A DNA stretch of 64,000 bases from Nitrospira japonica (GCA_020723105.1 DYJL01000008.1:10564-74563); one strand, 5' to 3'; shown: positions 2 through 17,637, numbered from the stretch's first letter. Notes: generated from the sequence alone by a model not told the origin. A program made the numbers and translations.

Positions 2-1270
2 GGAATAGATGTAAGCGGAAGTATGAAAGGGGTGCCAATAATGGAGGCAAAAAGATCGGCATCAATATTTCTGGATCAGCTTGATAAAAAAGATTTTGTT
101 TCAATCATGAGCTTTGGAAGTAAAGTCATGTTCCTTACCGATTTTACCGAGAAAAAACATGAAGCAAGGGCGAAAATAGAGAGTCTTATTGCCAACGAAC
201 AGTGGACATGGCTGTATCAGGCCACTTATGAAGGGCTGGATAAGGCATCCAGAGCGCCAACCTCAAGAGTTGCTGTAGTGCTTCTCACTGACGGCAAGGA
301 TGAGGGCAGCCATAGGACTGAGGAAGAGGTGGTAGCGAGAATTGGTGGAACGCAGGTGCCTGTGTATACGCTTGGTTTCGGCCAAAATGCGCAGGTGGAA
401 TATCTTAAGAGAATAGCAGGTATAAGTAGGGGATATTTTCTTTTCACTCCAAATGCAGAGGATCTCTCAAAACTATATAGCATGGTGATAGACCAACTGA
501 AAAACCAGTATTTAATCAGATTTAGTCTTACAGGCCCTGCTGGTAACTATACCAGCATCGTAAAGCTTAATTATCGGGGGAAAGTAATAACAGCTCGCAG
601 GGGTTTCATGCATTTTATTGTCGGGCCGGAACCGGGTAGAAGTTTGAATCCGAAATTATGGCTGGGAATAATAACTTTGGTTTTTGTTATTGCAGGTGCG
701 GTCTTTTTTATAGCAAATCGTAAAAAACAAGGACACAAACAACCGCAAGAGAATGGGTCAATACCTGAAGTAAGTATAATGGCAAACAAAAAGATCAATC
801 CGATCGGTTTTTTTTCGGACACCTCGAAAGATTTCACGAAAACAGTTATAACCCCTTCACAGTCAAGGGGTGAGGTGGGTTTTGAAATAGATATACCACC
901 TATTCCGTTCACATTTTCCCTTGCAGACAAAAGAAATAAGAAAGAATATAACGAGGTTATAATAACCCGATATGATAAAGATAAAGAACACTTATTTTCC
1001 AATGAGAAAGTATATCTATTATTTTCAGACAGTTCAGTGTCGCGTCCTGACGAGGGAAGAGAAGGGCATGCCAAGATCTTTGTTGATGAAAGCACACAAA
1101 CATACAAATTGGAAGATCTGGGAAGTGCCTCAGGTACCAGAATCAACAATTACGGGCTGTTAAGGAATGGGGAAGTATGGGTCCTTACAGACGGAGATAT
1201 AGTCATTGTTGGGCATACATCCTTGCAGTTTTATGATAAGAGGCAATTAACTGCTGATACAACATTTTGA
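2..1270 (+). CDS. vWA-TM-FHA protein (5' end outside window)
   Basis: Frame is open from the window edge (nt 2-22 encode GIDVSGS with no stop). GIDVSGSM matches the vWA MIDAS motif DxSxS. A single TM segment follows (LWLGIITLVFVIAGAVFFIA). The C-terminal FHA signature is GSASGTRINNYGL...GDIVIVG. Confidence 0.6.
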   Translation, partial: GIDVSGSMKGVPIMEAKRSASIFLDQLDKKDFVSIMSFGSKVMFLTDFTEKKHEARAKIESLIANEQWTWLYQATYEGLDKASRAPTSRVAVVLLTDGKDEGSHRTEEEVVARIGGTQVPVYTLGFGQNAQVEYLKRIAGISRGYFLFTPNAEDLSKLYSMVIDQLKNQYLIRFSLTGPAGNYTSIVKLNYRGKVITARRGFMHFIVGPEPGRSLNPKLWLGIITLVFVIAGAVFFIANRKKQGHKQPQENGSIPEVSIMANKKINPIGFFSDTSKDFTKTVITPSQSRGEVGFEIDIPPIPFTFSLADKRNKKEYNEVIITRYDKDKEHLFSNEKVYLLFSDSSVSRPDEGREGHAKIFVDESTQTYKLEDLGSASGTRINNYGLLRNGEVWVLTDGDIVIVGHTSLQFYDKRQLTADTTF

Positions 1271-1282
1271 GGAGACAAGCTG

Positions 1283-1921
1283 ATGAATGAAAATGATAAT
1301 AAAACAAACAGAAAATCAGGCAATATTGCTGACTGGATAAATGAACAGAAAAAACACAAGGAACAGCATGGTCGAGGAAAAGATGAAGCAGACAATATCT
1401 GGCCGCCGGAACCGGTAAAACGAAAAGTTGCTGAGAACATGAAGAATCAGAGAACTGAAACAATGCAGGTACACAGCCATGATAAAGAGGATAAAAAAAC
1501 ACCGATCAATAACAGACAAGATGTGGCAGACAATATTGGGCTGCCAACACAGATTGATGGATTACCGCAAGGTATATATGCACATTTTTTGCTGACAAAC
1601 ATATCAGGACTGGGAAGGAAAAAAGGTATACCACGTTATATGAAGCTTGAAAAGACCAAAACGCTTATAGGGAAATATGCAAGTGCCCACATAAGACTTG
1701 ATGACGAAGACACTATTGAAATCAAACATGCAAAAATTATCTTTGAAGATACTGGTGGGAAGAAAGATTTTGTTATTTACCCTATAAATAATGCCAGTTT
1801 GTCTGTAAATGGCAGCACAGTGTCAGATAGCGGCATTGTATTACACAGTGGGGATACGGTAGAAATAGGCAGTGCAGAGCTCATCTTTTTCTATAAAGAT
1901 ATTAAAAGGAACCTATCATGA
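1283..1921 (+). CDS. FHA-domain protein
   Basis: C-terminal FHA motif: GKYASAHIRLDD...SLSVNGSTVSDSGIVLHSGDTVEIG. The polar N-terminal half is low-complexity. A 12-nt gap separates it from the upstream gene, and it overlaps the downstream gene (ATGA). Confidence 0.55.
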   Translation: MNENDNKTNRKSGNIADWINEQKKHKEQHGRGKDEADNIWPPEPVKRKVAENMKNQRTETMQVHSHDKEDKKTPINNRQDVADNIGLPTQIDGLPQGIYAHFLLTNISGLGRKKGIPRYMKLEKTKTLIGKYASAHIRLDDEDTIEIKHAKIIFEDTGGKKDFVIYPINNASLSVNGSTVSDSGIVLHSGDTVEIGSAELIFFYKDIKRNLS

Positions 1922-2643
1922 AAATAGGTCGTATAAGTGACTGTGGCATTGCAAGAGAACAGAACGAAGACTCATATATTATTGACGAAGCGATAGGACT
2001 GTATTTGGTTGCTGACGGGGTAGGAGGACATCAGGCAGGTGAAATAGCCAGCAGAACAGGAGCTGAAACTATTTGCAGAACAATAAAGAATAAACTTGCT
2101 GATCAAGATGGACAGAGTATAGAGTTAATAATAAAAGAGGCTATTGACAGCGCCAATAGGGAAGTATTAAATCAGGCGACAAGTAATTCTAACTTCCACG
2201 GTATGGGTTCTACAGTGGTTTTAGGATTATACAGGAATGACAAACTCTATATTGCACACGTAGGAGACAGCCGGGCCTATTTGATCAATTCTAATGATAT
2301 TATACTTTTGACGGAAGACCATTCTATCGTTGCCAGCCTTGTAAGAGCAGGAAAGATTACAGAAAAAGAGGCAAGAAATCACAACATGCGCCACATCATT
2401 ACACAGTGCCTGGGCAGTCAGGAATATTTTGGTCCTGAAATAAAAATTATTGATTTTAAAAAGGATGATACCCTCCTGTTATGCTCAGACGGGCTTACCG
2501 ATATGGTTGAAGATAGTAAGATTAAAAAGACTGTGCTCAAAAAAAGGAAAGACCTGCAGGATTGTGCCTGGGAATTAGTGAGATTAGCCAACAAGAACGG
2601 CGGACTGGATAATATAACCATTATTTTGGCAGAAAAAAATTAA
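1918..2643 (+). CDS. PP2C-family Ser/Thr protein phosphatase
   Basis: PP2C motifs are present: LYLVADGVGGHQAGEIAS, GMGSTVVLGLY, HVGDSRAYL and LLLCSDGLTDMV. Confidence 0.8.
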   Translation: MKIGRISDCGIAREQNEDSYIIDEAIGLYLVADGVGGHQAGEIASRTGAETICRTIKNKLADQDGQSIELIIKEAIDSANREVLNQATSNSNFHGMGSTVVLGLYRNDKLYIAHVGDSRAYLINSNDIILLTEDHSIVASLVRAGKITEKEARNHNMRHIITQCLGSQEYFGPEIKIIDFKKDDTLLLCSDGLTDMVEDSKIKKTVLKKRKDLQDCAWELVRLANKNGGLDNITIILAEKN

Positions 2644-2655
2644 AGAAATTAAGAA

Positions 2656-3606
2656 ATGTATGGAGGATTCTATATGAATTTTAAAAAGATAAAATTGGAT
2701 TTTGAAAACACTTTTGTGGTGTTTGCTACGGGTGCATTATTAACAGGGTTGATATTCCTGATCTTATACTTTCTACCCAACACTGTTTATTTGCGTATCT
2801 TCTTTTACAGAAGCTGGTATGTACAGTCAATAACAACATGGCTTTTCTGCACAGCAGTCCTATTTGTGATATTTAAATATATGCGTCTTAAGGTAGAAAG
2901 AAGTATCCTTGACAATAAGGTAATTATAGAACGGCTCGACTCCATTACTCTTCAGCACGCAAGAGATGTATTGGAGAAAATACCTGAAAAATACAGGGAT
3001 ACCATCAGTTTCAGACGTATAAGTGAGCTTTTGAGGGGATATATACATAGAGAAGAGGTGGTAAGACTCAATCAGGAACTTTCAAGGAGGGATGTAGAAC
3101 AGATAGAAGGAGGGCATCTTGTTTTAAACTCACTGAAACAGCTTGTCCCGGTACTTGGTTTTCTCGGGACCGTCATTGGTTTATCTTTGGGAATGGTAAA
3201 TTTTTCTGATGTATCCGAAACCGTCGGCAACATAGAAAGTTTGAGGGTTAAATTAAAAGACCTTGCTGCATCCCTCAGCGTTGCCTTTGATACGACACTG
3301 TTAGGACTTGGTTATACGATCGTGCTTGTATTGATTTCATCATTATTAAGACGCAAAGAGGAGTCTTTTATTGCTGATGTAGATAACAAGTCCAGGGCGC
3401 TGATCACGAAATTAAGATATTTTTCAGATGCAGCGGAAAGGTCAGAAGGCAGTCACGATGGTGGTTATGGCAAGGAAATTGTAAATGCTCTCCGTCAGAA
3501 TGGAGACGCCATTTTGAAAAAGTTGGATGAGTTGAAGGACGGCTTACAAAAACCGCCTCACTACGAAATTATTGTTCAGCCTGTAAAAGGAAAAGATGTT
3601 GAATAA
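2656..3606 (+). CDS. MotA/TolQ/ExbB-family proton channel protein
   Basis: There are 2 N-terminal TMs and a cytoplasmic loop. The family-typical motif VPVLGFLGTVIGL sits in TM3, and TM4 has A..L..T..GL..I spacing (LAASLSVAFDTTLLGLGYTIVL). Confidence 0.65.
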   Translation: MYGGFYMNFKKIKLDFENTFVVFATGALLTGLIFLILYFLPNTVYLRIFFYRSWYVQSITTWLFCTAVLFVIFKYMRLKVERSILDNKVIIERLDSITLQHARDVLEKIPEKYRDTISFRRISELLRGYIHREEVVRLNQELSRRDVEQIEGGHLVLNSLKQLVPVLGFLGTVIGLSLGMVNFSDVSETVGNIESLRVKLKDLAASLSVAFDTTLLGLGYTIVLVLISSLLRRKEESFIADVDNKSRALITKLRYFSDAAERSEGSHDGGYGKEIVNALRQNGDAILKKLDELKDGLQKPPHYEIIVQPVKGKDVE

Positions 3607-4546
3607 GAAAGGAAGCATAGAGATACTCATGCTGCTGGGCTGTCTGGTCGGGGTTATTGTCTTTCTGAGCTTTGCAATGGGGGTTTTAAGTCTTGCTTCT
3701 AAAATAGAAAAGGATAATATTCCGGACCATTCCAGATTATTGGAGAAACGGAAGAATTTACTGGAAGAAAAAAAGAAGAAAGAAGAAGATGTTGCGAATC
3801 TTACAAAAGAGAGCGGAGAATTAAGAAATAAAATATCGGAAAAAGAGAAGGATTTTGAAAAAATAAAATTGCCTGAAAAAGAGCAGGAGAAAAAAGAGGA
3901 ATTGATCAGTCTTAAGAAACGGCTCGATGAATTACTTAGACTGATAAAGACTAAACAGGATGAGCTTGAAAAAATCAAACAGGAGTTGGCCGGATTAGAA
4001 GAATATGGAAAAAAAGAAGAAGACCTTAAGAAATTAAGAGAAGAACTGGAGGCATTAAAAAGGAAAAAGAAAGATAAAGAAGAAGAAATAGCAAAAACAT
4101 CTTTTTATAAAAATAATGCAATGATAAAGGAAATAGAAGAACTCAGGAAGGCGATTAAAGAAGCTGAAGAAAAAATGAAAGAGCTGAAAAATAAACTAAA
4201 GGAGGGAAATGATCCCGTATTGGAGGGCATCAGAGGAAGCCTTTCTATAAAAAATCCCCTTTTTGTTGAATGTAAGAATAATATGATTATATTGCACCCG
4301 GATAAAAAAGCCCTGACTGTTTCTGACCTGGGGAAGAACAATACTTTTTCGAATATTAATGTTACGCATAGAGGTATCGTGTTTTTCATAAGGCCGGATG
4401 GTTTTGATACTTTCAACGAAAGTTTTGGACTTGCACAAAAAATAGCAGATAAATCTAATTTGGACCTTGCTTATGAGCCTATTGATTCAGATTATGATCT
4501 TGATTCTTTAATCGAAAAACTGGGGAAAAGAAATGAAAAGAGATGA
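3596..4546 (+). CDS. TolR/ExbD-like single-TM protein with long K/E-rich coiled-coil stalk
   Basis: N-terminal TM (IEILMLLGCLVGVIVFLSFA) is followed by ~190 aa of heptad-like K/E/L repeats. The C-terminal domain (NPLFVECKNNMIILHPDKK...GIVFFIRPDGFDTFNESFGLAQKIADKSNLDL) resembles the ExbD/TolR periplasmic fold pattern. It overlaps the upstream gene by 11 nt. Confidence 0.45.
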   Translation: MLNKKGSIEILMLLGCLVGVIVFLSFAMGVLSLASKIEKDNIPDHSRLLEKRKNLLEEKKKKEEDVANLTKESGELRNKISEKEKDFEKIKLPEKEQEKKEELISLKKRLDELLRLIKTKQDELEKIKQELAGLEEYGKKEEDLKKLREELEALKRKKKDKEEEIAKTSFYKNNAMIKEIEELRKAIKEAEEKMKELKNKLKEGNDPVLEGIRGSLSIKNPLFVECKNNMIILHPDKKALTVSDLGKNNTFSNINVTHRGIVFFIRPDGFDTFNESFGLAQKIADKSNLDLAYEPIDSDYDLDSLIEKLGKRNEKR

Positions 4547-5606
4547 TTTTTCTTTTCTCAAGCTTTTTGAAGACCCGCTTATGACAATCATTGCCATTGT
4601 ACTGTTCAGCACGGTCTGGATGATACTACCCAAAGAGACAAAGCCCGTTGACGCTAAGGTGTATCTTACCCTTGATGAACTTGAAACTCTGAAGAGAGAG
4701 ATTGATTCGCTCGATAAAACAATAAAAAAACTGAAAATGGAAATTAAGCGGCGGAACGAAGAGATCAAATGGATTGAGAGCAGGATAGAAGAAACTGTAA
4801 ATGAGAAAATCAAAGACGTCCAGGGAAAAAATACAGAGCAGTTAAAGAACGAAGCTGCAGCGACAATAGACAGGATCAAGAAAGAAAAAGAGGAACTCAA
4901 CCGCCTGGAAGAGGAATTGGAAAAAGCAAAAATGAAGCTGGCTCAAATTAAAGGTAAAGATAATAGTGAACTTATCATAGAAACAATAAGAATGAAAAAA
5001 GAAATTGAAAAAATTAAAGAAGATATCGGCCTGTTGGAAGAGAGAATAAGACTGGCTTTAAAAGACCTGAAAAAAGAAAAAGACAATAAGAATACCCAGG
5101 AGAATTTGATTGCTCAACTGCAAAATGAATTAAAGACAAAACAGACTGAAGTTGGGCAACTTGAAGAACAGGTAAAAGGAATAGGGACAGGAGGAGGATT
5201 TAAACCAATTGTTAAATCTGAGAAAAACCCTTTCTTTATAGAACTGGTAAACAATCATTTGTTTCCCGTAGATGATGTCCATTATGAAGCTGAATATGGT
5301 TATATAAAAATCAAGGATGGCAGAACAGTGCAGGCATCCAAAAAAATCCGAAAGTCTTCCAGCGGTGAACATATCAGCAAAATTGAGAATTCTGAAAGCA
5401 ACTTCAATAACATATTGAAAAAACTTGATGTTAGTAAAGAACGTATTATCTTCTTAGTCCATAATAATTCTTTTGAGATCTTCAGAAAAGCGAGGGCGAT
5501 AGCTTTAAAAAAGGGGATCGAAACAGGCTGGTGGACACGCGAAGGTGATTCAATAATAATCACTTATGGCGGAGGCGGGACAGACATAGGCTCCTACAAA
5601 GAATGA
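4533..5606 (+). CDS. TolR/ExbD-like single-TM protein with long coiled-coil stalk (paralogue of 3596-4546)
   Basis: N-terminal TM has an acidic residue at its start (FEDPLMTIIAIVLFSTVWMIL), like the conserved Asp of ExbD/TolR. About 200 aa of K/E-rich coiled coil follow. The C-terminal domain (NPFFIELVNNHLFPVDD...ERIIFLVHNNSFEIFRKARAIALKKGIETGW) resembles the ExbD/TolR domain. It overlaps the upstream gene by 14 nt. Confidence 0.5.
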   Translation: MKRDDFSFLKLFEDPLMTIIAIVLFSTVWMILPKETKPVDAKVYLTLDELETLKREIDSLDKTIKKLKMEIKRRNEEIKWIESRIEETVNEKIKDVQGKNTEQLKNEAAATIDRIKKEKEELNRLEEELEKAKMKLAQIKGKDNSELIIETIRMKKEIEKIKEDIGLLEERIRLALKDLKKEKDNKNTQENLIAQLQNELKTKQTEVGQLEEQVKGIGTGGGFKPIVKSEKNPFFIELVNNHLFPVDDVHYEAEYGYIKIKDGRTVQASKKIRKSSSGEHISKIENSESNFNNILKKLDVSKERIIFLVHNNSFEIFRKARAIALKKGIETGWWTREGDSIIITYGGGGTDIGSYKE

Positions 5607-5690
5607 AAATAACTAACAGAGAGCAAGATAAAATACTTTTTCAGGAGAATTAGTCAGTAACAATTTTAATTGGAACAGGAGGGAACAAAA

Positions 5691-7079
5691 ATGAAATTAC
5701 ATCAAATCAAAAAAACAGTTTTCAGAAGCAGTATGCTGGTTTTACTGTTTCTTGTTGCTTTATTTATATTCAACCTTAAAATCTCAAACGCTCAATCCAC
5801 CCTGATAGTAAGTAAAGAAGTTGAGGGCGCAGTCCTTGCTGAAGACTGGGCAAAGGTTGCGAAATTGCTTGATGACGTGAAGGCAGAAACACCCGAACCG
5901 GTACTTCGACTGATCAAAGGACATGCTGATCTGGCATTGAACAGGAACAATGAGTCTTTATGTATGTTCATAAGCGTGGCTTCATCAGATAACGATCTTC
6001 AGGAGTGGGACAAGTGGACACGGGATTTTGCGGGAAGAAATCCAAAAAGCATAATTGCGTATTACTTCAGAGGAGATGCACTGGCAAGAATAAAGAAATG
6101 GGATGAGGCATTGACGGCATTTAACAAGGCTCTGGAACTTAATCCAAAACATGCGATGGTTTTGAATGCGAGAGGGGTTGTGTATGCGGCGAAGAGGGAT
6201 CTGACCCTTGCACGTAATGATTTCGATAATGCTATCAGCATCAACCAGTCTTTCGCAGATGCCTATGCAAATCTCGGTTCAAGATTTATACAGATGAAAG
6301 ACGGAGCGGAAGGAGCGATAAATGAATTTGATAAAGCGCTGAGGATTTCGCCAGGGTTCGCGCTTGCTCTCCATGGAAAGGGGAACGTGGAAGTAATTCT
6401 TTTTCAAATAGAGGAAGCAGAAAAAAATCTTAATAAGGCAAAGGAATATGGGACGTGCGGTAAGGAACTCTTTAATGAAAACATTATTAACATTGCAGCT
6501 TATGTTCATGGAGTGGATAAAAAGGAATTGATTGCAATGATTCCAAAAGATGGAGATGGAATAGGGATGTCATTAAAGAGAACATTTGAAAATCCTGTAG
6601 GTTCATCCGGGTTAAAGCAATTTGAGAATTCATTAAAGAATTTTGAGCGTTTTGGGGGTAAGCCTGGAGTTGGACAGTGGAGTTTTAATAGAGTTGGTGA
6701 AAGTTTCTATCATTTATCTCCTACTGAGAAAATTACAGCCAATAAAATGGTGGATAACTTCCTGGATAAGAATCCAAATTTAAGCAGGCATTTCTATGAA
6801 GGCGCAAAAGATTTCGCACATAATCCTATCAGAAGCTTTGGATACGAAGTAAAAGGGAAAATTGGTGGAACAATGGGTGGGATGGAAGCAGGAGTGAAAA
6901 TTCCCGCCTCTACTTCTGATCAAGCATATAGAGACATCGGCAAGGGGTTCCAAGATAAGGCTATGAATCGTATGAGTAATCTTCCGGAAGGCGTCCTTGC
7001 AAGCCTTGCCGATGCAAATTGGGATGAGGGTCAATGGCCGTTTGTAGAGTACTATGGCCTTATTTACAGCATGAAGTAA
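5691..7079 (+). CDS. Secreted TPR-repeat protein
   Basis: AGGAGGG lies 8 nt upstream of the ATG at 5691, so the longer 5670 start is disfavoured. A signal peptide is present (LVLLFLVALFIFNLKISNAQS). At least 5 TPR-like 34-aa units are visible (AYYFRGDALARIKKWDEALTAFNKALELNP, AMVLNARGVVYAAKRDLTLARNDFDNAISIN and others). Confidence 0.6.
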   Translation: MKLHQIKKTVFRSSMLVLLFLVALFIFNLKISNAQSTLIVSKEVEGAVLAEDWAKVAKLLDDVKAETPEPVLRLIKGHADLALNRNNESLCMFISVASSDNDLQEWDKWTRDFAGRNPKSIIAYYFRGDALARIKKWDEALTAFNKALELNPKHAMVLNARGVVYAAKRDLTLARNDFDNAISINQSFADAYANLGSRFIQMKDGAEGAINEFDKALRISPGFALALHGKGNVEVILFQIEEAEKNLNKAKEYGTCGKELFNENIINIAAYVHGVDKKELIAMIPKDGDGIGMSLKRTFENPVGSSGLKQFENSLKNFERFGGKPGVGQWSFNRVGESFYHLSPTEKITANKMVDNFLDKNPNLSRHFYEGAKDFAHNPIRSFGYEVKGKIGGTMGGMEAGVKIPASTSDQAYRDIGKGFQDKAMNRMSNLPEGVLASLADANWDEGQWPFVEYYGLIYSMK

Positions 7080-7104
7080 TAAATGTTTAATGCGGGGTAT
7101 TGGA

Positions 7105-10100
7105 ATGAAAACAGCTAAATCGAAAACATTGCTTTTTACATTTATTTCCGTCCTGTTTCTCTCTTGCATTGCATATGCGGACCAATTTATTGCCTTTTCC
7201 CTCAATAAAGCAGAAATGGAAATGAGAGAATCAGGACGTTCCCATAAAAACAGGTTATTCGAACTTGGAGGAATAACCCGGCCTGTTGGAATTGTATATG
7301 ATGCCAACCGCAGTGATTTGATTGTAGTTGGGCAGATAAATGAGAAAGAACAAAAAATATCTCTTGATGATTTTGTAGTTGCCTTGAGAGCGATTTCAGT
7401 GTACAAGGAATCTCCGTTGGTGAGCATTGACAGATCTGATGAGACTGAAACAACCAAAAGGCAAAGAGTGCGCTTTGAGGGGGGGATAGAAAATACTAAA
7501 TTCGGAAAAGACTTGCTTGAGGCGGATATCATTCTGAAAAAAATGGGAGTCGGGGAGCTGCGGACCGATATTTGGGGTGTTAAATCCTATGTCGATATGT
7601 CGGCGGAGTATTGGAATAAGACGGGGATTGAGGATTCAGTTTCCAGCCGATTCTGGTTTAAACCTTCAAAAGAAAAATCTTTTGTTGGCGTTCGCGATGG
7701 CGTAGTCATCGTAAAAAAATTAGTAATTGATGTAAAAACGGAAGTTATGGGAGCAATTAATTCACACCGACCTGTGGATGACCGAGCAGGAAGTTATGAT
7801 GAGATCGGAGATAGATTTGCCAGTGCAGTGGCAGCAAATATTGATGATATTGATTCATATTATTCTGAGGTAAAAAGGTTAGACCCTCTTTTTCGATTGG
7901 TTGGTCTGGCTGAGGGTATCAAAAGAGAGGCTTTCAACTTCAAACCTGATATAAATTTCTGGTTGAATGAATATAGAGTAGAACATATAGAAACGCTAAA
8001 GGATTATCCACTGTTAGTGAAAGAAAAGAGACTGGAAAAAAATGGGGAAAACCGTCAAATGACAATTAATGGCGGCATAGAATTAAGACCACTTCTTGTA
8101 GATCTTAATGCTGGTGTTGTAACAGCATTAAGAGATATTGTTATTAAATCCAGACCTGAAGGGAATCCGTTAATATGGAAATTGCCGCTTGAAGGATGGC
8201 AACTACCTGAGGATTCAAAAATAGATATTACTGCATTCGGTAAAAAGTTAAGAGATTCAACTGCGGGGGTAAACGGTATGAGCTTAACTAAGCGGATTTC
8301 CCCTGTTGATTCTCCCGGAAATCAGAAAATAAATTATAAATCATCTCCCCTGTCCGACGGGGGCTCAAACTTCAATTTTACAGATAGATTTTCTCCTCAG
8401 AAATACTCCCCTCACGTCGGCGGAGTTATGCTCCAGGGTGTAGCAAAGGTTTCAGGCGGGGAACAGGCGAAGGTTGATCTCACAAGCGGAAATTTTTCTT
8501 TGATCGTGGGCGGGCAGAATGCGCGGCTTGCACCCGAGGCATACAGAAAATTCATAACAGCGCTATGGTCTGTATATTACAGTCAGAAAGACCCCGGTAT
8601 TTCCATCGATCCGATCGGATGTTTTTATTTTGATCCCTATGACCCTGAAAGGGACAAAAAATTTGCGGAATGCCTGAAACGCTATGAGAAAAAGGAAGAG
8701 AAGCACATGGTCCGCTACATCGGCAAAGTGATCAACACGGACCTTGGGAGAGTCATGCGGGAGGCGGACTACGTGATGAAAAAGTGGTCGGTCGGAACAG
8801 AGAAGCCTGGTATTTCAGGATTCAAAAGCCCGGATGAATACAGGGGCTGGAAAACTACTGATAGCGAAGGATCGAGCCGCTTCTGGTTTGTCCCTGAAGA
8901 TATGAAGTTCAAACGTGGCGGTGACATGCTCCTTTTTGAGGACGGCAGGATGACAGTAAAAACAGAGTATATGTTTAAAAATGATGAAGGTGCACAGGCA
9001 GATCCGTACAACGAAAAGTTTGCCGGGTTCTTTACCGAACACTATGGAGAAATTGCCAATAAATATCCTGTCTATCAGGAACTTTTTGAATATGCGAAAA
9101 TGGTGAGCCTGGCCAAATATCTCAAAGAGCAGGGTCTTCCCATGTTCTGGTTCCTGATGGCTAACAAGGATCTGGTCATTACCGAGGATTCTCCCGGTAC
9201 TGTGGAAGCGCTGGCAAAGGGATCGGATTATTATAAAAACTTATATATAATGGGCGGAGTAGACCTTGGCTTTGATGCCAGACGCGAAGGCAATTATGTG
9301 TATGACCGTGAGGCAGTAAGGGCCATAAATGAAGCTGTTTCCAAGCTCCCTTTAAATGCTTATTCAAAAACCACACTATCTGCAGGGGACATAACTCCTG
9401 CGAGTTCAGAGCCGTTCTCCTTTAACCTTGGAAAGGACAGCTTCACTGTTGTCCCGCAACATTCGCTTACATCAGGCAAGGACAGACATGGGATCAGATA
9501 CCAGACAGACATAGCTTTAAGAGGGACAGGCTTACAACTGACCGGACGGGCGCTTGAGACTATAAAGAACAAAATTATTAGGTGGATGATGGTACAGGAA
9601 CTGAATCCGATATTACGGACTAAAGATACCACTAAATTATCTGAAGCTGAAATTGAAGCCCTTAATAAGAGAATTACAGAAGAAACAGAAAAAGCTAAAA
9701 CGAAAGCAGGAAAGATCATTGAAAAGATGGAGAGTTTAAAAAATATTAAATATACAGATGAAAATAAATTTGTAAAAGCTCTTGAAGAAACCATAGGCCG
9801 GGAAAAAACAGATATTTTTAAGAGAATGGTTATGGAATTTGCCTATTACAACACTAATCTGGACCTCGTACGCTATTTTAAACCGGGACAACAGGACATC
9901 GGAGAGTTCGGTAAAGGCTGGCATTTATTGATACCCTATCGTCTTAAACCCGCAGGCGATGCCAAAAGAAAATTCCTTAATGTGTTGATTCCGGAGAAGA
10001 TGGCTGTAGAAAACCAGCTTACCGGGGATCAAGAGGTGCTCACATTCAGTACAGACCGTTATACAGTTGCAGGTTATGTGCCTGCAAAACTTGAGTCGAG

Positions 10101-10812
10101 TCAGGTGGTGGGACTATTCATGATGTCTGATGCCTCATATCGTCTTGCGGACAAGTTGGGTAATGAGTTTTGGTTTGACCGGGCAGGTTATCTTACCGAC
10201 ATGATCTTTTCTGAGGACCATCATATTCATGTTGAATATGCTGACAGTTTTACTGACGCTTTTGAAGAAATCCCTTATCAGATCCAGCCTGCAGGTAAAG
10301 AGCAAACGGCATTTCTTAATGTCTTCATACCAAGAAAAATGACTGTTAAGAACCTCATCAGTGGAGATAGCGAGATCCTGACCTTCAGTGAAGAAGGCGA
10401 ATTTGCTGGATATGTTCCTGAAAATGCGGAAAAGAGCAGCTATAAAATATTAGCGCTAATGTCAGATGCATCTTTCCATCTGCTTGATAAGAATGGGAAT
10501 GAGACGTCATTCAGTTCCTTGCGGACTTTTGATGGAAAATTTAAAGAGATGGCTTTTTCTTCTGATCGCAGAATGGTGAGATCCGTGTCACAGGGCAATC
10601 AAAAGATCGGTTTTAAATATTCTATAGACAGATCAGGAGAAGTTATGATAGCCAGCGCCAATCTCTCGGAAGGCGAAGAAACAAAACTGAGTTATATAGT
10701 GAAATATAAATATGATAAGGAAGGCAGGCTCTATAGTGTAACTGGGACGGGGAATACAATAGCTAAAACTCAACATCAAAATAATGAAATGCTGATGCAT
10801 GTGAAAAAATAG
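7105..10812 (+). CDS. Large secreted protein (1236 aa), unknown function, internal tandem repeats
   Basis: Signal peptide MKTAKSKTLLFTFISVLFLSCIAYA precedes DQF. An ~100-aa tandem repeat starts at PAGDAKRKFLNVLIPEKM... and repeats at PAGKEQTAFLNVFIPRKM.... A second repeated motif is SSRFWFKPSKEK / SSRFWFVPEDMK. I recognise no known catalytic motif. Confidence 0.7.
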   Translation: MKTAKSKTLLFTFISVLFLSCIAYADQFIAFSLNKAEMEMRESGRSHKNRLFELGGITRPVGIVYDANRSDLIVVGQINEKEQKISLDDFVVALRAISVYKESPLVSIDRSDETETTKRQRVRFEGGIENTKFGKDLLEADIILKKMGVGELRTDIWGVKSYVDMSAEYWNKTGIEDSVSSRFWFKPSKEKSFVGVRDGVVIVKKLVIDVKTEVMGAINSHRPVDDRAGSYDEIGDRFASAVAANIDDIDSYYSEVKRLDPLFRLVGLAEGIKREAFNFKPDINFWLNEYRVEHIETLKDYPLLVKEKRLEKNGENRQMTINGGIELRPLLVDLNAGVVTALRDIVIKSRPEGNPLIWKLPLEGWQLPEDSKIDITAFGKKLRDSTAGVNGMSLTKRISPVDSPGNQKINYKSSPLSDGGSNFNFTDRFSPQKYSPHVGGVMLQGVAKVSGGEQAKVDLTSGNFSLIVGGQNARLAPEAYRKFITALWSVYYSQKDPGISIDPIGCFYFDPYDPERDKKFAECLKRYEKKEEKHMVRYIGKVINTDLGRVMREADYVMKKWSVGTEKPGISGFKSPDEYRGWKTTDSEGSSRFWFVPEDMKFKRGGDMLLFEDGRMTVKTEYMFKNDEGAQADPYNEKFAGFFTEHYGEIANKYPVYQELFEYAKMVSLAKYLKEQGLPMFWFLMANKDLVITEDSPGTVEALAKGSDYYKNLYIMGGVDLGFDARREGNYVYDREAVRAINEAVSKLPLNAYSKTTLSAGDITPASSEPFSFNLGKDSFTVVPQHSLTSGKDRHGIRYQTDIALRGTGLQLTGRALETIKNKIIRWMMVQELNPILRTKDTTKLSEAEIEALNKRITEETEKAKTKAGKIIEKMESLKNIKYTDENKFVKALEETIGREKTDIFKRMVMEFAYYNTNLDLVRYFKPGQQDIGEFGKGWHLLIPYRLKPAGDAKRKFLNVLIPEKMAVENQLTGDQEVLTFSTDRYTVAGYVPAKLESSQVVGLFMMSDASYRLADKLGNEFWFDRAGYLTDMIFSEDHHIHVEYADSFTDAFEEIPYQIQPAGKEQTAFLNVFIPRKMTVKNLISGDSEILTFSEEGEFAGYVPENAEKSSYKILALMSDASFHLLDKNGNETSFSSLRTFDGKFKEMAFSSDRRMVRSVSQGNQKIGFKYSIDRSGEVMIASANLSEGEETKLSYIVKYKYDKEGRLYSVTGTGNTIAKTQHQNNEMLMHVKK

Positions 10813-11863: not shown

Positions 11864-14557
11864 TTGAAAAACATAATTTTAAATATCAACGGCAGAAGTA
11901 TTCAGACTGTTGAAGGCCGAACAGTCCTGAAGGCTGCGAGAGAAAACGGGATCTACATCCCTACCCTTTGTTACCATCCCCGTACAAAACAGGCCGGCAA
12001 GTGCAGAATATGTGTTGTAGAAGTTGAAGGTTTGCCTGGTTTGAGAATATCCTGTTCGCTCGAAGCAAAAGAGAACATGGTCGTGCTTACAAATACAGAG
12101 CGCGTCCTTGAAACCAGAAAGATGATTGTTGAGTTGTATCTGTCAAGCGGCAAACACAACTGTATTTCATGTGAAGCAAACGGCCGTTGTGAACTGCAGG
12201 AAGTTACATACCGTCTTGGCATAGAGAAGTCCACCTTCCCTGTATTGACTAAAGATTATCCGCCTGATACATCCAGCCCGATGATAATCAGGGACCTGAA
12301 TAAGTGCATTCAGTGTTACCGGTGCATTGCCGGATGCAATAATATCGCAGTTAATGAAGTCCTCGATATGGGGTTTCGGGGCAGCAATATGACTGTAGTC
12401 TGCGATACAAACAAGCCGATGGGAAAATCTTCATGCGTGATTTGCGGCGAATGCGTTCAGCTCTGTCCGACAGGCGCGCTGACAGAGAAAAAGGCCTTTG
12501 GCAAGGGAAGGCCCTGGGAGATAAAAAAAATCAAGACCACATGCCCCTACTGCGGTGTCGGCTGTCAGGTTCATCTGCATGTCAAGGATAATGAGATTGT
12601 GAAAGTGACTGGTGTGGAGGAGGTTGCTCCCAATTACGGCAGCTTATGCATAAAGGGAAGGTTCGGATACGATTTTGTTCATTCTCCTGAAAGATTGAAA
12701 ATGCCGCTTTTAAGAAAGAATGGTAAATTTGTTGAAGTCAGTTGGGATGAGGCGCTCGATTTTACTGCAAGCAGGCTCCTTGAAATTAAAAAGGCCCGGG
12801 GGCCGGAATCTATTGTCGGCATCGGCTGCGCAAGGACTACGAATGAGAACAACTATGTTATGATGAAATTCATGCGTGCGGCAGTTGGCACCAACAACGT
12901 AGACCACTGTGCGCGCACCTGACACGCTCCAACTGTAGCCGGTCTGGCTGCAACTCTGGGTGCAGGCGCAATGTCCAATTCCATCAGGGAGATTGAGAAC
13001 AGCCCGGTCCTGTTTGTAATTGGTTCAAATACAACAGAAGCACATCCGGTTATTGCCAACAGTATGAAGAGGGCCGTCAAGAAGGGCAGCATCCTTATTG
13101 TTGCAGATCCGAGAAAAATTCCCCTTACGCGCTGGGCCACAAAACATTATCAGCATAAGGTAGGTTCAGACATTGCCTTGCTGAATTCAGTGATGCATGA
13201 GATTATAAAAAACGGCTGGCACAACAAAGAATTCATCAGCAGCTATACCGAAGGATTTGATGAATTACAAAAGGTCGTCAGCGCTTATCCACCGGAACGC
13301 GCTTCAGAGATATGCGGAGTTTCAGAGGATGGAATCAGAGAACTTGCAATGCTGCTCGGCACGGCTGAGAGAGTTGCGCTTTATTACACACTCGGAATTA
13401 CCGAACACGTTACAGGGACAGACAACGTCAAAACCTGTGCAAACCTGCAAATGCTTCTCGGCAATATCGGCAAGGAATATACCGGCGTTAATCCATTAAG
13501 GGGGCAGAACAATGTTCAGGGAGCCTGTGACATGGGAGTGCTTCCGGATGTGTTTACAGGATATCAGAAGGTGGCTGATGAAACGGTCCGGGAGAAGTTT
13601 GCAACTGCATGGGGTATTAATTCTTTGCCTGAAACCGCAGGCACAAAAATACCGGCCATGTTTGACGGAATGCTTCACGGCGACATTAAGGCGCTCTATC
13701 TTGTTGGTGAAAATGTAGTGATGTCAGAACCCCATCAGGCGCATACAATCAGGGCGCTTGAAAAACTCGAGCTTCTCATTGTGCAGGATATTTTTTTCAA
13801 TGAGACTGCGCAATATGCGCATGTGGTTTTACCGGCTGCGTGCTTTGCCGAGACAGAAGGGACCGTCACCAATACTGAGAGGCGGGTTCAGCGCGTCAGA
13901 AAGGCCGTGGAACCGCCAGGACAGGCTAAGGAAGACTGGTGGATTATCAGTGAGCTTGCAAGAAGGATGGGCTACCTTATGGACTACACGTCAACAGAGC
14001 AGATATGGGAGGAAGTTCGCAAATTAACGCCAAACATTTCCGGTATTACATTTGAAAGGATCGAGCGAGAGGGCCTTCAATGGCCCTGTCCGGATATTAA
14101 TCATGCCGGTACATGTTATCTTTACTGTGACAATATATTTCCCTGCGGCAAGGCCAGGTTTCAACCTGCACAGTGGAAACCGCCGGCAGAGGTTCCTGAC
14201 AGGGAATATCCGTTTGTGCTTACAACAGGCAGAAGGCTCTGGCATTATCACACAGGGACCCAGATACGAAAATCTGCAGGATTTGATGATGTCTTCCCTG
14301 AGGAACTTATCGAGGTAAACAAGGAAGATGCCGGAAGTCTGGGTATAAAAAATGGCGATTATATCCGCGTTGTCTCACGCAGAGGAATGCTGAGAGTAAA
14401 GGCCTGGGTTACGGACCACGTTTCACCAGGCTTGTGCTTTATGACCTTTCACTTTCATGAGGCCTGTGCAAACGCTCTGACGAACAATGCCTTTGACCCG
14501 TTTGCAGGCACTGCCGAATATAAGGCATGTGCAGTGAGGCTGGAGAAAGAGGGATAG
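11864..14557 (+). CDS. fdhA: Formate dehydrogenase alpha subunit, selenocysteine-containing (NAD-type with N-terminal 2Fe-2S/4Fe-4S NuoG-like domain)
   Basis: TTG start. The N-terminus has a 2Fe-2S ferredoxin and 4Fe-4S motifs (CIQCYRCIAGC, CVICGECVQLCP). Context VDHCART-TGA-HAPTVAGLAATLGAGAMSNS places the TGA at 12920-12922 at the conserved Sec position of FdhA/FdhF. The downstream ORF (12971-14557) is in the same frame. A SECIS-like hairpin lies 13 nt after the UGA. Confidence 0.85.
12935..12951 (+). other. SECIS-like hairpin downstream of fdhA UGA
   Basis: GUAGCC-GGUCU-GGCUGC forms a 6-bp stem (including one G-U pair) with a GGUCU apical loop, like the E. coli fdhF SECIS apical loop. Confidence 0.55.
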
Positions 14558-15315: not shown

Positions 15316-16203
15316 CTACCCCCTTTTTCTTCTTATCCCCATAATTATTCCAGCCTCTATCCCCAGTGTGCCTATGAAAGCAAGCACCGGATAAAAATAT
15401 ATAGTCTCTTTCTCCTCTGTCTCAAGGGCAACATAGTACCATGTAGAGACAACCTTTCTACCGCCCCTGTCACCTTCAGAGCCATTCCATACTGCAAGAG
15501 AAAGTGGGGTGACGCTGCCTTCCCTGAAAACAACGTCGAATTTATCCTGAGATGTCAGGGGCCGCTTAAACACAACAAACCATTTCCCGGACTGCCATTT
15601 TCCGTTACCGCTGATGTTTTGGATATCAGCCTTTTCCAGATCAGTTGCGTTTCCAAAGCCCTGAGCGATTATATTTTCAACAGGTGAAATTCTCGCTCTT
15701 GATACAGGATTGCCGACCTCAAGGCCTCCGGCAAATTCATCTGATGTTGCATAGGTACTATGCATGTCATTTGCATTTTGCCATGAAGCTTTCCAGAACC
15801 AGATATTTACAGGATTGTCTTTGTCGCCCATTGCAAAATGCGGTTTGGATGCAGCAGCAGATGAGGGAAATTCCAATGCCACGGCATCAGAGAACTTATC
15901 TACATCTAATGACGAATCTTCTGAGGCATCACTCCACTCAAGCAGAAAGGCCATTTCTTTTGTGTTGTGCAGGGCCCGGACCTTTAAATTTTTTACAGAA
16001 GATTCATAGGTCCTCGGTTTTGCCATAACCTGTGGAGCGAGGGGAATTTCAATGGCAGATGCATTGTTCCAGGCGCTGTTATCAGCTTCAAGGGGCAGAT
16101 CACCCGATACCTTCTTTGCCATGACAACAAGACCCTGGGAATAGGCATCAAAAGACAGGAGGAAAAAACAGAGAAGAGCGAAAATAGTTATCATTGCGAG
16201 CAT
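15316..16203 (-). CDS. Gamma subunit of type II DMSO-reductase-family enzyme (EbdC/NxrC-like, haem b), membrane-anchored
   Basis: A start at MLAMITIFALLCFFLLSFDAYSQG gives a signal peptide. The longer ORF extending to 16431 consists of REP repeats. The EB_dh-like domain and a C-terminal TM helix (FYPVLAFIGTLGIEAGIIMGI) are present. It is adjacent to the beta subunit. Confidence 0.65.
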   Translation of the reverse strand: MLAMITIFALLCFFLLSFDAYSQGLVVMAKKVSGDLPLEADNSAWNNASAIEIPLAPQVMAKPRTYESSVKNLKVRALHNTKEMAFLLEWSDASEDSSLDVDKFSDAVALEFPSSAAASKPHFAMGDKDNPVNIWFWKASWQNANDMHSTYATSDEFAGGLEVGNPVSRARISPVENIIAQGFGNATDLEKADIQNISGNGKWQSGKWFVVFKRPLTSQDKFDVVFREGSVTPLSLAVWNGSEGDRGGRKVVSTWYYVALETEEKETIYFYPVLAFIGTLGIEAGIIMGIRRKRG

Positions 16204-16210
16204 AGTGTGC

Positions 16211-16301
16211 TGTCCGTAACAGTTCTTTACACTGTCATTGCGAGGGACGAAGTCCCGAAGCAATCTCACTACGAGATTCCTCGCTTCGCTCGGAATGACA
16301 A
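16211..16301. repeat. REP/MITE-like palindromic element, family A (inverted pair of GTCATTGCGAG...GAAGCAATCTC units)
   Basis: The sequence is CTGTCCGTAACAGTTCTTTACAC-TGTCATTGCGAGGGACGAAGTCCCGAAGCAATCTC-ACTAC-GAGATTCCTCGCTTCGCTCGGAATGACA. It lies in the beta-gamma intergenic spacer. Confidence 0.65.
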
Positions 16302-16345
16302 AGCTGTAAAGATATTTAGCTGACAGGACAATAGGAAAGCAATCT

Positions 16346-16396
16346 TTCTTTTGACTACGAGATTGCTTCACACCCTTTGGGTGTTCGCAATGACAT
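16346..16396. repeat. REP family A single unit (reverse orientation)
   Basis: GAGATTGCTTCACACCCTTTGGGTGTTCGCAATGACA has an internal palindrome CACCC(T/A)AAGGGTG. Confidence 0.55.
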
Positions 16397-16440
16397 CTGA
16401 ACTTGTCTTCATAAATTTGAAATTTTCTCATTATCCCCTC

Positions 16441-17637
16441 CTATGTTATGTTATGCCTGTAGACTTGCAGTTTTTCATCATGGAAGGGCCTGATAAAGAC
16501 AGGCTCTTTTAAGGGCACCTTTACCAACTCTTTACCCTTTTCACCATAACCAGTAACAATGCCCTTTGATACCCTGAATTTTGCGGACCAGAACTCTGTT
16601 GAACCAAATAGCGTCAGAGCCCCCAGCAGGGTTTCATCTTTATGGGCATTTTTGTATGCCGCGACCGCATTCGCAGCATCCGGCCCGAACATCTGTATCA
16701 GATAAGGAAGTGGAACATGTATAGGCGGAATATAATATATATTAGGCTCCAGGCCAAGCTGCGGGTAGAGGGGTAACGCAATCTTCTTGATGTGAACCAG
16801 ATAGTCCACAGGATTTGCAGGGTCCGGCTTATCAGGGGTATGCAGCCAGCCATTAAGTCGTATCCTTCCGATGCAGGTTGTCACACACTGAGTCTGGTGT
16901 CCCTGTTCTGCAAGCGGATAGCAACCAATACATTTTTCAGCTATCTTTGTCGTGTTATTGAAAAGAACTTTTTTATAGGGACAGGCCCTTACGCATTCTC
17001 TGTAGCCTCTGCACCTTTTCTGATCCACAAGGACTATGCCGTCTTCCTCTCTCTTATAGATAGCCTTTCTCGGACAGGCTCCCACACAGGCTGGATATGT
17101 GCAATGGTTGCAAATGCGGGCGAGATAGAAATGCCATACCTTATGAGGCATTGTTATAAAATCACCCTTATCTATTGAGCCAGATGGTTCGTCTTCACCG
17201 ATGTTTGGATGGGCCCAGTCAATTTCCTCAGGGATATAGCCCTGAGCCACCTGCCCCTTTGGTGCAGCCTCAAATATTGTATTGCCTTTATAAACTTTCC
17301 CTTCCCATTTTTGAGGGCCCAGTAAATCCAGTATCTTCACGTCCCACGCCAGCGGATAAAACCCATACGGCTTTGACTCAACATTGTTCCAGAACATATA
17401 CTCCTGCCCCTTGCCCGTGGTCCATGTGTGTTTGCATGCCATGGTGCAGGTCTGGCAGGCAATGCACTTGTTGATGTCGAATACCGCGGCAAACTGTTTC
17501 TGCGGCCTTACTTCTTCGTATGGATAATACATCTCCCTCTGAATCTGCCAGTTCTTTACTTTATTTTTAGCCATTAATCCCTTACCTCCGTAGATTGCTT
17601 CGTCATCCCGAAGAATCGGAATTCCTCGCAATGACAA
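16441..17637 (-). CDS. Beta (Fe-S) subunit of Nar/Nxr-type oxidoreductase (NarH/NxrB-like)
   Basis: CIACQTCTMACKHTWTTGKGQEYMFWNNVESKPYGFYP matches the NarH N-terminus. Further ferredoxin motifs are CNHCTYPACVGACP and CRGYRECVRACP, plus CIGC...C. Confidence 0.9.
   Translation of the reverse strand: MSLRGIPILRDDEAIYGGKGLMAKNKVKNWQIQREMYYPYEEVRPQKQFAAVFDINKCIACQTCTMACKHTWTTGKGQEYMFWNNVESKPYGFYPLAWDVKILDLLGPQKWEGKVYKGNTIFEAAPKGQVAQGYIPEEIDWAHPNIGEDEPSGSIDKGDFITMPHKVWHFYLARICNHCTYPACVGACPRKAIYKREEDGIVLVDQKRCRGYRECVRACPYKKVLFNNTTKIAEKCIGCYPLAEQGHQTQCVTTCIGRIRLNGWLHTPDKPDPANPVDYLVHIKKIALPLYPQLGLEPNIYYIPPIHVPLPYLIQMFGPDAANAVAAYKNAHKDETLLGALTLFGSTEFWSAKFRVSKGIVTGYGEKGKELVKVPLKEPVFIRPFHDEKLQVYRHNIT

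Follow-up and report, generated by a model that had tools for sequence, protein, structure and literature searches.

A Nitrospira japonica gene cluster combining a MotA/ExbB-like channel, paired coiled-coil proteins and a giant exported protein: a candidate ion-driven envelope machine

Gene content of the cluster

The DNA considered here (the window) is a stretch of 64,000 nt from Nitrospira japonica (GCA_020723105.1 DYJL01000008.1:10564-74563), with all coordinates counted from its first letter, and the subject is a block of eight co-directional open reading frames (ORFs) on the + strand at 2-10812, which encodes phospho-signalling proteins, a channel subunit of the MotA/ExbB/TolQ superfamily, two single-pass coiled-coil proteins (CC1 and CC2), an exported TPR protein, and an exported giant protein of 1,235 amino acids (aa). 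ORF translation of the window finds all eight genes where a first-pass annotation of this DNA had listed them, with junctions, in gene order, of +12, -4, +12, -11, -14, +84, and +25 nt. That annotation had described only overlaps or gaps of 14 nt or less and had concluded that the genes are translationally coupled; the description holds for five junctions (-14 to +12 nt), but no claim of coupling is possible for the 84-nt gap between CC2 and the TPR gene or the 25-nt gap between the TPR gene and the giant gene. The spacing between the phosphatase and channel genes is 12-30 nt, with no terminator-like site between them. A promoter and terminator scan of the window gave counts equal to those of shuffled controls, and a search of it for Rfam families and tRNAs found none. 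The block is flanked by housekeeping genes (leuB, asd, and an amidohydrolase gene upstream; a sugar epimerase gene and fdhA downstream of 10812), and neither the window nor the 10 kb upstream of the block contains a tolB, pal, tonB, ExbD, or OmpA gene.

The first gene (2..1270, +), whose N-terminus is cut by the window edge, encodes a protein with von Willebrand factor A (vWA) and FHA domains (VWA 54.9 bits, FHA 25.9 bits, both over the Pfam cut-offs), and nucleotides 2-22 translate as GIDVSGS, an intact metal ion-dependent adhesion site (MIDAS) motif. Hydropathy places a hydrophobic helix at aa 219-238 of the window ORF (nt 656-715), and the FHA SR..GH motif lies at nt 1034-1081. The full-length protein has 513 aa (7056-8597 of L001, the public source contig that carries the same sequence plus the upstream region) and begins with an N-terminal signal sequence; its predicted layout is a signal peptide, a periplasmic vWA domain, a transmembrane (TM) helix, and a cytoplasmic FHA domain. 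The MIDAS residues and the FHA SR/GH/GT motifs are conserved in an alignment of seven orthologues. The second gene (1283..1921, +) encodes a soluble FHA protein (Pfam FHA 29.9 bits; Yop-YscD_cpl 27.1 bits, under its cut-off) with a low-complexity region of ~110 aa at the N-terminus, and has orthologues in the related loci L002, L004, L005, L086, and L087. It is overlapped by 4 nt by the gene for a PP2C Ser/Thr phosphatase of the Stp1/IreP type (1918..2643, +; 82.2 bits for Pfam PP2C and 260 bits for NCBIfam NF033484, whose cut-off is 230). These three assignments agree with the first-pass annotation, which had also expected a Ser/Thr kinase just upstream of the window, and a Hanks kinase with one TM helix and two PEGA domains (Pkinase 217 bits) is indeed encoded there, at L001 4635-6392. 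Between the kinase and the full-length vWA-TM-FHA gene lies a gene for a 203-aa lipoprotein (L001 6409-7020) with a VSGC lipobox, a coiled coil, and a small C-terminal beta domain. Its match to FlgT_C is very weak (15 bits, under the cut-off) and it has no counterpart in the remaining loci, and it is excluded from the system.

The TPR protein (5691..7079, +) and the giant protein (7105..10812, +) share with the vWA protein a predicted N-terminal hydrophobic export signal. In the TPR protein, a hydrophobic segment is followed by SNA-QS, the repeats occupy aa ~110-255 (Pfam TPR_1/TPR_2/TPR_11, 55-60 bits), and the C-terminal half of ~200 aa is without known domains; the earlier reading of a secreted TPR protein stands on both the signal peptide and the repeats. 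The giant protein has a signal peptide with AYA-DQ, and its single Pfam match is to DUF1598, below threshold (23 vs 25 bits). An AlphaFold2 model (pLDDT 73.9) consists of two alpha/beta modules, a helical segment, and an all-beta region of ~300 aa. The modules are homologous to each other, DUF1598-like, and the most conserved part of the alignment (7282-8094 and 8512-9264); they are followed by the helical segment at 9532-9843 and the C-terminal all-beta, RHS/YD-repeat-like region at 9844-10752, which contains a tandem repeat (9928-10224 / 10267-10584). The internal repeats that had been noted earlier are real, with aa 60-330 matching aa 470-720 at z 16.7 and aa 942-1040 matching aa 1055-1160 at z 43.7. 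No Pfam RHS_repeat match and no toxin domain were detected in the protein, and the all-beta region looks, in our judgement, much shorter than the RHS/Tc shells that it matched. The family is well conserved and comprises >186 clusters of 1,050-1,250 aa, all named hypothetical.

The channel subunit and the paired coiled-coil proteins

The channel gene had been annotated at 2656-3606 as MotA/TolQ/ExbB-like with an LGFLGTVIGL motif. Domain and motif are both upheld (Pfam PF01618 MotA_ExbB, 45.6 bits against a gathering cut-off of 22.9, aa 129-242), and the start alone is revised, since position 2674, with a GGAGG placed 8 nt upstream of it, serves as the start in the database entry P0001 and is more likely than the alternative upstream ATG at 2656 to begin the gene (2674..3606, +). 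Hydropathy predicts four TM helices, with the motif LGFLGTVIGLS at nt 3154-3186 in TM3 and SVAFDTTLL at nt 3277-3303 in TM4. Across 20 orthologues, G162, G165, T166, and G169 in TM3 and S202, T207, and T208 in TM4 are invariant, and the protein has the conserved small and hydroxyl pore residues (the Thr ring) of the MotA/ExbB/TolQ superfamily. The clade to which it belongs is sharply bounded, with 79 clusters scoring at least 178 bits and the next group no more than 91 bits, and a precomputed PF01618 match is present on 78 of the 79 members. The tail that follows the TM region is only ~85 aa long, and the apolipoprotein-like matches obtained when the clade profile is compared with Protein Data Bank (PDB) sequences stem from the helical tail. 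A C-terminal peptide, PPxYEIxVQP (nt 3553-3582), is common to the clade consensus and might allow a partner in the cytoplasm to dock.

CC1 (3596..4546, +) has a TM helix at 3614-3694 with Glu9, a coiled coil of ~176 aa (~26 nm), and a C-terminal alpha/beta domain at 4250-4543, and CC2 (4533..5606, +) has a TM helix at 4566-4628 with Asp14 at its N-terminal edge in the motif F[QEK]DP, a coiled coil of ~188 aa (~28 nm), and a C-terminal alpha/beta domain at 5223-5603. Heptad periodicity in the charged regions is strong relative to shuffled sequences (z 6.7 in CC1, z 7.1 in CC2), and with 2-3 Pro residues in ~180 aa, these linkers are heptad coiled coils rather than Pro-rich segments. The two proteins are paralogues, which blastp detects at E 5e-4 and hhalign, comparing the C-domain families, at 88.7% probability (E 2.5e-6). 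The paralogy, the N-terminal TM helix with an acidic residue in each protein, and the long charged coiled coil had all been proposed from the sequence and are corroborated by these results. The alignment of the CC1 C-domain family (A2) contains an invariant P, C, RP.G, F, and E.

Several observations bear on the place of CC1 and CC2 in the system. In every related locus, CC1 lies directly 3' of the MotA-like gene, and when hidden Markov models (HMMs) of the CC1 C-domain, the CC2 C-domain, and ExbD were run on the ORFs of all 90 fetched loci, the slot after MotA held a CC-type protein in 26 distinct loci and a canonical ExbD in 30, with both present in none. The Asp at the start of the CC2 TM helix is invariant in 11/11 loci. 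A profile search of 1.84 billion representatives returned 565 members (clusters) of the CC family, among which short members of ~200-240 aa have an Arg-rich N-terminus followed by LDSFLD[IV]xTN, a motif resembling the 'PFIDV' of ExbD and the 'PLLDV' of TolR; by the positive-inside rule, the Arg-rich stretch before the TM helix suggests an N-in/C-out topology like that of ExbD. Slot position, invariant Asp, this hint of topology, and the stalk together would place CC1 and CC2 in the role of the B subunit (ExbD/TolR/MotB), and CC2 is proposed to be the proton-binding B subunit and CC1 its partner in a heterodimeric B pair.

The lengths of the two proteins vary together. The spans from the TM motif to the C-domain, which include the TM helix of ~20 residues, are 130/139, 134/140, 134/140, 196/213, 205/222, and 281/293 residues for CC1/CC2 in individual genomes (r = 0.998), and the matching of lengths within each genome is the hallmark of a coiled-coil heterodimer with parallel chains. 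The stalk itself ranges from ~110 to 265 residues across the loci that have one and measures ~26-28 nm in the organism of the window, while one planctomycete pair is without a coiled coil and is ExbD-sized (178 and 208 aa).

The opposite orientation, N-out/C-in, would make the CC proteins a cytoplasmic scaffold, and the MotA-like protein would then act as in Zorya, as a sensor or ion channel whose tail lies in the cytoplasm. The N-termini of CC1 and CC2 in the window are not strongly basic and the best, albeit weak, NCBIfam/PADLOC matches of the MotA-like protein are ZorA models (26-28 bits), both of which would suit such an arrangement, but the Arg-rich N-termini of the short relatives indicate N-in, the conserved Asp is placed where ExbD, TolR, and MotB have theirs, at the N-terminal end of the helix, and an interaction in the periplasm is simpler for TPR and giant partners that bear export signals. 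In Zorya, moreover, the long tail belongs to ZorA and not to the B subunit (PMC12505986), and we regard a cytoplasmic scaffold as quite unlikely.

The relation of CC1 and CC2 to familiar transducers was also considered. The locus might be a divergent Tol-Pal or TonB system in which the pair are TolA/TonB-like transducers or TolR duplicates with an ordinary tethering or uptake function, as the membership of the channel in the MotA_ExbB family would allow; the TPR protein could likewise echo YbgF/CpoB, yet the NCBIfam model tol_pal_ybgF matches it at E 0.019 and 15.6 bits against a cut-off of 90. Against this stand the lack of TolB, Pal, TonB_C, TolA_C, and TonB-dependent receptor genes in or beside any of the loci, the lack of an ExbD signal in Pfam or HMM searches, the lack of an SHLS/His motif in the TM helices of CC1 and CC2, and the distance of the channel clade from all other MotA/ExbB proteins (≥178 bits inside vs ≤91 outside), which together make the possibility extremely slight. 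In Pfam and NCBIfam, CC1 and CC2 matched only coiled-coil-rich families such as SMC, TonB_C did not match either protein, and the weak precomputed Pfam labels on CC homologues (DUF8429, PF24161) were not reproduced by a Pfam scan. The earlier view that these are not ordinary TolA or TonB proteins, with no tolB-pal pair adjacent, is thereby retained.

The C-terminal domains had been called TolR/ExbD-like, and of this claim a TolR-like fold is weakly supported, while the sequence tests (Pfam, an ExbD HMM, hhalign, and PDB profiles) were negative, as set out below. A Foldseek search of the PDB with the C-domain model (pLDDT 76.5, built from a 5-sequence alignment) gave no match at E <0.05.

Conservation and variation among related loci

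The invariant core of the system consists of the MotA-like protein, the B pair (CC1 and CC2), the TPR protein, and the giant protein of ~1,200 aa. This core recurs in Desulfobacca-like bacteria, several 'Deltaproteobacteria' metagenome-assembled genomes (MAGs), LCP-89, Desulfobulbia, Planctomycetota, and one Bacteroidales MAG, so that conservation of the block as a unit, which had been anticipated, extends in its core gene order across phyla. Two 'Deltaproteobacteria' MAGs (L004, L005) and a Desulfobacca acetoxidans-like genome repeat the gene order of the window, which in the latter runs from the kinase through vWA-TM-FHA, FHA, PP2C, MotA, two small proteins, and TPR to a 1,092-aa protein. 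The TPR gene separates the B pair from the giant gene in L002, L004, L005, L008, L009, L084, L087, L088, L089, and L090. Similarly, giant-protein homologues in Planctomycetota and the Bacteroidales MAG, taken as the starting point, have MotA_ExbB, a pair of small single-pass proteins, and a TPR protein as neighbours, and no kinase, FHA, PP2C, or vWA genes lie beside these planctomycete and Bacteroidales core loci.

Of the 14 informative loci, 8 have the kinase/FHA/PP2C/vWA module beside the core, in shuffled order, and the other six lack it. The module lies upstream of the core in L002, L004, L005, and L087 and downstream in L085 and L086 (Eisenbacteria), where kinase, FHA, and vWA genes are present in both loci and PP2C also in L086. 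The LCP-89 locus (L008) has a kinase and PP2C with the core and no match to vWA-TM-FHA, the core of Desulfobulbia (L009) and that of L084 are without the module, with PEGA and WD40 proteins in its place in L084, and the WOR-3 locus (L007), cut short by the end of its contig, shows only MotA and the B pair. In L087, the phospho-signalling genes are accompanied by a ClpB-like AAA+ gene and an FHA-sigma54 activator gene. This arrangement (939-9956 of that locus) interleaves the module with a 786-aa ClpB/ClpV-like double AAA+ ATPase, ahead of which lie an FHA-GAF-sigma54 activator and an OmpA/TPR protein, and resembles the accessory content of a type VI secretion system (T6SS), with T6SS core genes absent.

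The claim that phospho-signalling and the motor belong to one system is therefore sustained in part, by the eight loci in which they adjoin, and is limited by the six in which the module is missing and by its consequent status as an accessory. The two parts might even be unrelated neighbours, namely a generic kinase/PP2C/FHA/vWA signalling operon and a separate operon for the motor, TPR, and giant proteins, with no phospho-control of the motor. Besides the six loci without the module, this would fit the occurrence of the same four-gene module on its own elsewhere, for example, reportedly, as DRA0331-0334 in Deinococcus, and the core proteins, in which no phospho-acceptor was found. It is opposed by the close spacing of the PP2C and MotA-like genes with no terminator-like site between them and by the presence of the module, rearranged, beside the core in eight loci of different lineages, for which chance juxtaposition is a hard explanation; we consider it unlikely. 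Rearranged positions argue for a functional link wherever the module is present, rather than for inherited synteny.

Related loci also vary in ways that do not concern the module. A distant branch in Planctomycetota and Puniceicoccales (L010-L019, L022, L063) combines a longer MotA-like protein of ~420-530 aa with a CC2-type protein and a much larger CC1-type protein, which has Gly/Arg-rich extensions and a length of 535-770 aa. No giant homologue was found elsewhere in the fetched loci of this branch (up to 10 kb on each side), and the module of motor and B pair therefore predates its link to the giant protein and is more widely distributed than that link. In many alphaproteobacterial loci (L020, L024, L032, L035, L037, L041-L043, L047-L049, L054, L055, L058, L061, L064, L065, L068, L069, L071, L073, and L076), neither an ExbD-type nor a CC-type gene follows MotA/ExbB, and these may represent the family of tolQ with a vWA pair described previously (PMC12204202) or another unrecognised type of B subunit. 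In addition, L009 has its MotA-like gene divided between two overlapping ORFs (9944-10772) and L007 has a frameshift that breaks up CC2 (12095-12989), either of which could be a pseudogene or an error of MAG assembly. In a Planctomycetota MAG (L090, 5196-5815 and 19636-22392), a coil-less core is situated between a ParD/ParE pair and ParB-like, integrase, and RadC genes, which suggests that a mobile island can carry the system and that horizontal spread is possible.

A role in anti-phage defence related to Zorya, with a MotAB-like sensor of envelope perturbation and the kinase and phosphatase signalling downstream, would accord with the weak ZorA matches, with a match of the PP2C protein to the PADLOC candidate PDC-M21C (E 1.7e-17), and with the patchy distribution across phyla and the neighbourhood of ParDE, integrase, and ParB-like genes in L090. 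Yet a nuclease, a helicase, ZorC/D/E, or another effector occurs in no locus, the ZorA scores fall far under the cut-offs of the models (28 vs 100 bits), CC1, CC2, and the TPR and giant proteins have no PADLOC match beyond coiled-coil noise and no signal of a phage family, the flanks in the window are housekeeping genes, and the obligate partners are large exported structural proteins; a defence function is accordingly very improbable. Two further ideas were rejected. A prophage or defence island is not indicated by generic domain matches in PHROGs, the weak ZorA and PP2C matches in PADLOC, and the housekeeping flanks, and the Aravind-type 'ternary' conflict systems with vWA proteins are vWA-MoxR-VMAP systems for which no MotA/ExbB component is mentioned (PMC7159879).

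The remainder of the window holds two features outside the block. At 11864-14557 (+), the ORFs 11864-12922 and 12971-14557 probably form one formate dehydrogenase alpha-subunit gene read through the TGA at 12920-12922, whose context, VDHCART-TGA-HAPTVAGL, we take to be the classic selenocysteine motif of FdhA. At 15316-22614 (-) and 23033-24724 (-) lies a periplasmic nitrite-oxidoreductase/NarG-like cluster, comprising a molybdopterin subunit with a twin-arginine (TAT) signal (1,147 aa), a beta subunit (Fer4_11), a chaperone resembling NarJ, a haem subunit (EB_dh), and a cytochrome c. The gene after the cluster encodes a cytochrome bd-like oxidase, and bacteria of the anammox, Nitrospira or Nitrospina type typically have such a set of genes.

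A putative force transducer and its relation to known motors

The likeliest reading of the locus is that of a phospho-gated, trans-periplasmic force transducer driven by the proton-motive force (PMF), and we assign a probability of roughly 0.55 to its being an undescribed PMF-driven envelope machine of the 5:2-motor kind that is phospho-gated in this lineage. What the sequences show directly is the domain content, the linkage of the genes, the conservation of the Asp, the co-variation of the stalks, and the mutual exclusion with ExbD; the stoichiometry, topology, force transmission, phosphorylation target, and physiological output of such a machine are what we infer. The MotA/ExbB-like protein would form a ring in the membrane, which the N-terminal helices of CC1 and CC2 would enter as a heterodimeric axle, with the Asp of CC2 binding protons. 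The length-matched coiled coils would form one parallel stalk of ~26-28 nm into the periplasm, ending in paired small alpha/beta domains that are possibly TolR-like. Ion flow would turn or pull the stalk, and its head would work mechanically on the TPR and 1,235-aa giant proteins near the wall or the outer membrane, by moving, exposing, anchoring, or exporting the giant protein. The Hanks kinase, whose PEGA domains would be periplasmic, may sense an envelope cue, and the resulting phospho-threonine may be read by the two FHA domains, one soluble and one tethered under the periplasmic vWA/MIDAS domain, until PP2C resets the switch. Kinase, PP2C, and FHA proteins would in this way gate the assembly or activity of the motor, analogous to the threonine phosphorylation pathway of T6SS.

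A number of points weigh against this proposal. For the channel, the clade profile finds no solved A subunit significantly among PDB sequences (TolQ 9avi, E 0.94). For the B pair, no Pfam family was found in 51 CC relatives and PF02472 is absent from CC1 and CC2, an ExbD HMM (55 sequences) scores <4 bits on all CC proteins, hhalign of the CC C-domains against the 55-sequence ExbD alignment gives E 0.026 and 0.18, and CC profiles show no link to ExbD/TolR among PDB sequences; among 11 CC1 orthologues, 8 retain Glu9 and three have Ala at this position. The 5:2 assembly, the CC heterodimer, and the periplasmic location of the stalk are themselves deductions from sequence features. With regard to gating, the phospho-module is an accessory and not an obligatory part of the system, the core proteins offer no identified phospho-acceptor site, the soluble FHA protein has, as read from the sequence, a Lys in place of the canonical GR arginine, and the TM helix of vWA-TM-FHA is unconserved in the seven-orthologue alignment, so that there is no support here for this helix docking on the motor in the manner of TolA, as has been proposed for other vWA proteins (PMC12204202).

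Among characterised machines, the nearest analogue in logic is the Agl-Glt gliding (focal-adhesion) machinery of Myxococcus xanthus, in which a TolQ/ExbB-like pentamer, AglR, has a heterodimeric TolR-like axle of AglQ and AglS, the FHA domain of GltG lies directly beside a TM helix that contacts the motor, and periplasmic TPR proteins and a vWA protein, CglB, participate (PMC11761067). The likeness comprises the TolQ-like ring, the heterodimeric B pair, the FHA domain next to a TM helix, the TPR and vWA components, and a force path across the envelope, and Agl-Glt is to that extent thematically closer than the first-pass annotation allowed, whose statement that known motors differ in composition holds for Tol-Pal, TonB, the flagellar stator, GldLM, and Zorya by their defining features. 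No Glt homologues were detected (best match to NCBIfam GltG, E 0.059, 11.9 bits against a cut-off of 650). The present locus further differs in the long coiled coils and other C-domain family of its B proteins, in a vWA domain on the periplasmic side of an FHA membrane protein instead of on a surface adhesin, in the lack of outer-membrane beta-barrel genes, in the DUF1598/RHS-like partner of ~1,200 aa, and in the addition of a Hanks kinase and PP2C.

In common with ExbB-ExbD and with TolQ-TolR, this locus has a MotA_ExbB A subunit with conserved TM Thr/Gly residues, B genes directly downstream of it, and a single-pass B protein whose helix bears a conserved Asp at its cytoplasmic end. It is distinguished from them by the lack of an ExbD/TolR sequence signature, by two B paralogues in place of a homodimer, by a coiled coil of zero to ~265 residues between helix and head, by the lack of a TonB/TolA partner, and by four predicted TM helices in the A subunit, as in MotA, in place of three. 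Consistent with these differences, the NCBIfam tolQ model scores 17.4 bits on the MotA-like protein against a cut-off of 221, a jackhmmer search of the window for ExbD/TolR gave no match, and the Tol-Pal genes tolA, tolB, and pal occur neither in the window, nor in the 10 kb upstream, nor in the related loci. Similarly, for the flagellar stator, no OmpA/MotB match was obtained in CC1 or CC2 and no flagellar genes are present in the annotated regions of the window, and for Zorya, the ZorA models reach 13-28 bits in NCBIfam against cut-offs of 100-700 and ≤27 bits in PADLOC, where ZorB, ZorC, ZorD, and ZorE have no match.

In GldLM/PorLM of the type IX secretion system (T9SS), the dimeric single-pass partner of an inner-membrane motor is reportedly a long periplasm-spanning shaft that passes rotation to components close to the outer membrane. 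An inner-membrane motor with a long periplasmic shaft formed by a dimeric single-pass partner is proposed for the present locus as well, but the GldM shaft is a homodimeric chain of folded domains and the key acidic residue is on GldL, and here there are no T9SS genes, no C-terminal domain (CTD) sorting signal, and no sequence similarity (GldL, GldM, and PorM have no Pfam/NCBIfam match in any of the eight proteins). The signalling side has its counterpart in the H1 T6SS of Pseudomonas aeruginosa (PpkA/PppA/Fha1), where a Hanks kinase, PP2C, an FHA reader, and a periplasmic vWA domain constitute a transmembrane post-translational switch. The same four domain types thus act on an envelope machine in that case, with the vWA domain fused to the kinase there, whereas here the kinase bears PEGA domains and the vWA domain is joined via a TM helix to FHA. 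T6SS core genes are found in no locus, the TagH/VI_FHA model, with a cut-off of 120 bits, reaches 12.5, and L087 is the one related locus with a ClpB/ClpV-like AAA+ gene.

The nearest entities in the literature are uncharacterised clusters of tolQ, a tolR pair, TPR, and vWA genes, from a study in which putative vWA 'force transducers' beside tolQ-like motors were proposed as new PMF-driven envelope systems (PMC12204202; Mol Biol Evol 2025). Those vWA proteins have an N-terminal TM helix (with SHLS or a trans-pore Asp) and a C-terminal vWA domain, whereas the vWA protein of the present locus has its vWA domain at the N-terminus, after a signal peptide, then an unconserved TM helix, and FHA as its cytoplasmic end, and coiled-coil B proteins, a kinase, PP2C, and a DUF1598/RHS-like giant are not mentioned in that paper (PMC12204202). 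A literature search on DUF1598 and on combinations of the component names found no description of the system, in line with the earlier statement that no characterised system has this combination, and we conclude that it is a real, conserved, and apparently undescribed variant of the ion-driven 5:2 motor theme, distinguished by an unusual B-subunit pair with coiled coils. The bolder proposal of a new class of trans-envelope machine, in which a non-ExbD heterodimer with a coiled-coil shaft of tunable length (none, or roughly 16, 28, or 40 nm) drives a giant protein and a TPR adaptor under a Thr-phosphorylation on/off switch, is tentative and falls somewhat short of even odds.

Five kinds of MotA/ExbB-type motor are understood, namely flagellar stators, Ton, Tol, Agl gliding, and GldLM secretion, with Zorya defence as a recent sixth, and each new kind has revealed another route for energy across the periplasm. 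If the proposal is true, the system would contain the first coiled-coil drive shaft among bacterial ion motors, with a length that differs between genomes, and would be the first such motor gated directly by a Hanks kinase/PP2C/FHA module, a switch that could show post-translational regulation of such motors. The locus defines a further family-level system with testable handles in the invariant Asp, the variable stalk length, the two exported partners, which belong to large families annotated only as hypothetical, and the phospho-switch. The system is widespread in poorly studied anaerobes and bacteria of the Planctomycetota-Verrucomicrobiota-Chlamydiota (PVC) group (565 B-subunit clusters, >186 giant clusters), and at least one cultured species, Desulfobacca acetoxidans, carries it, which makes it accessible to experiment.

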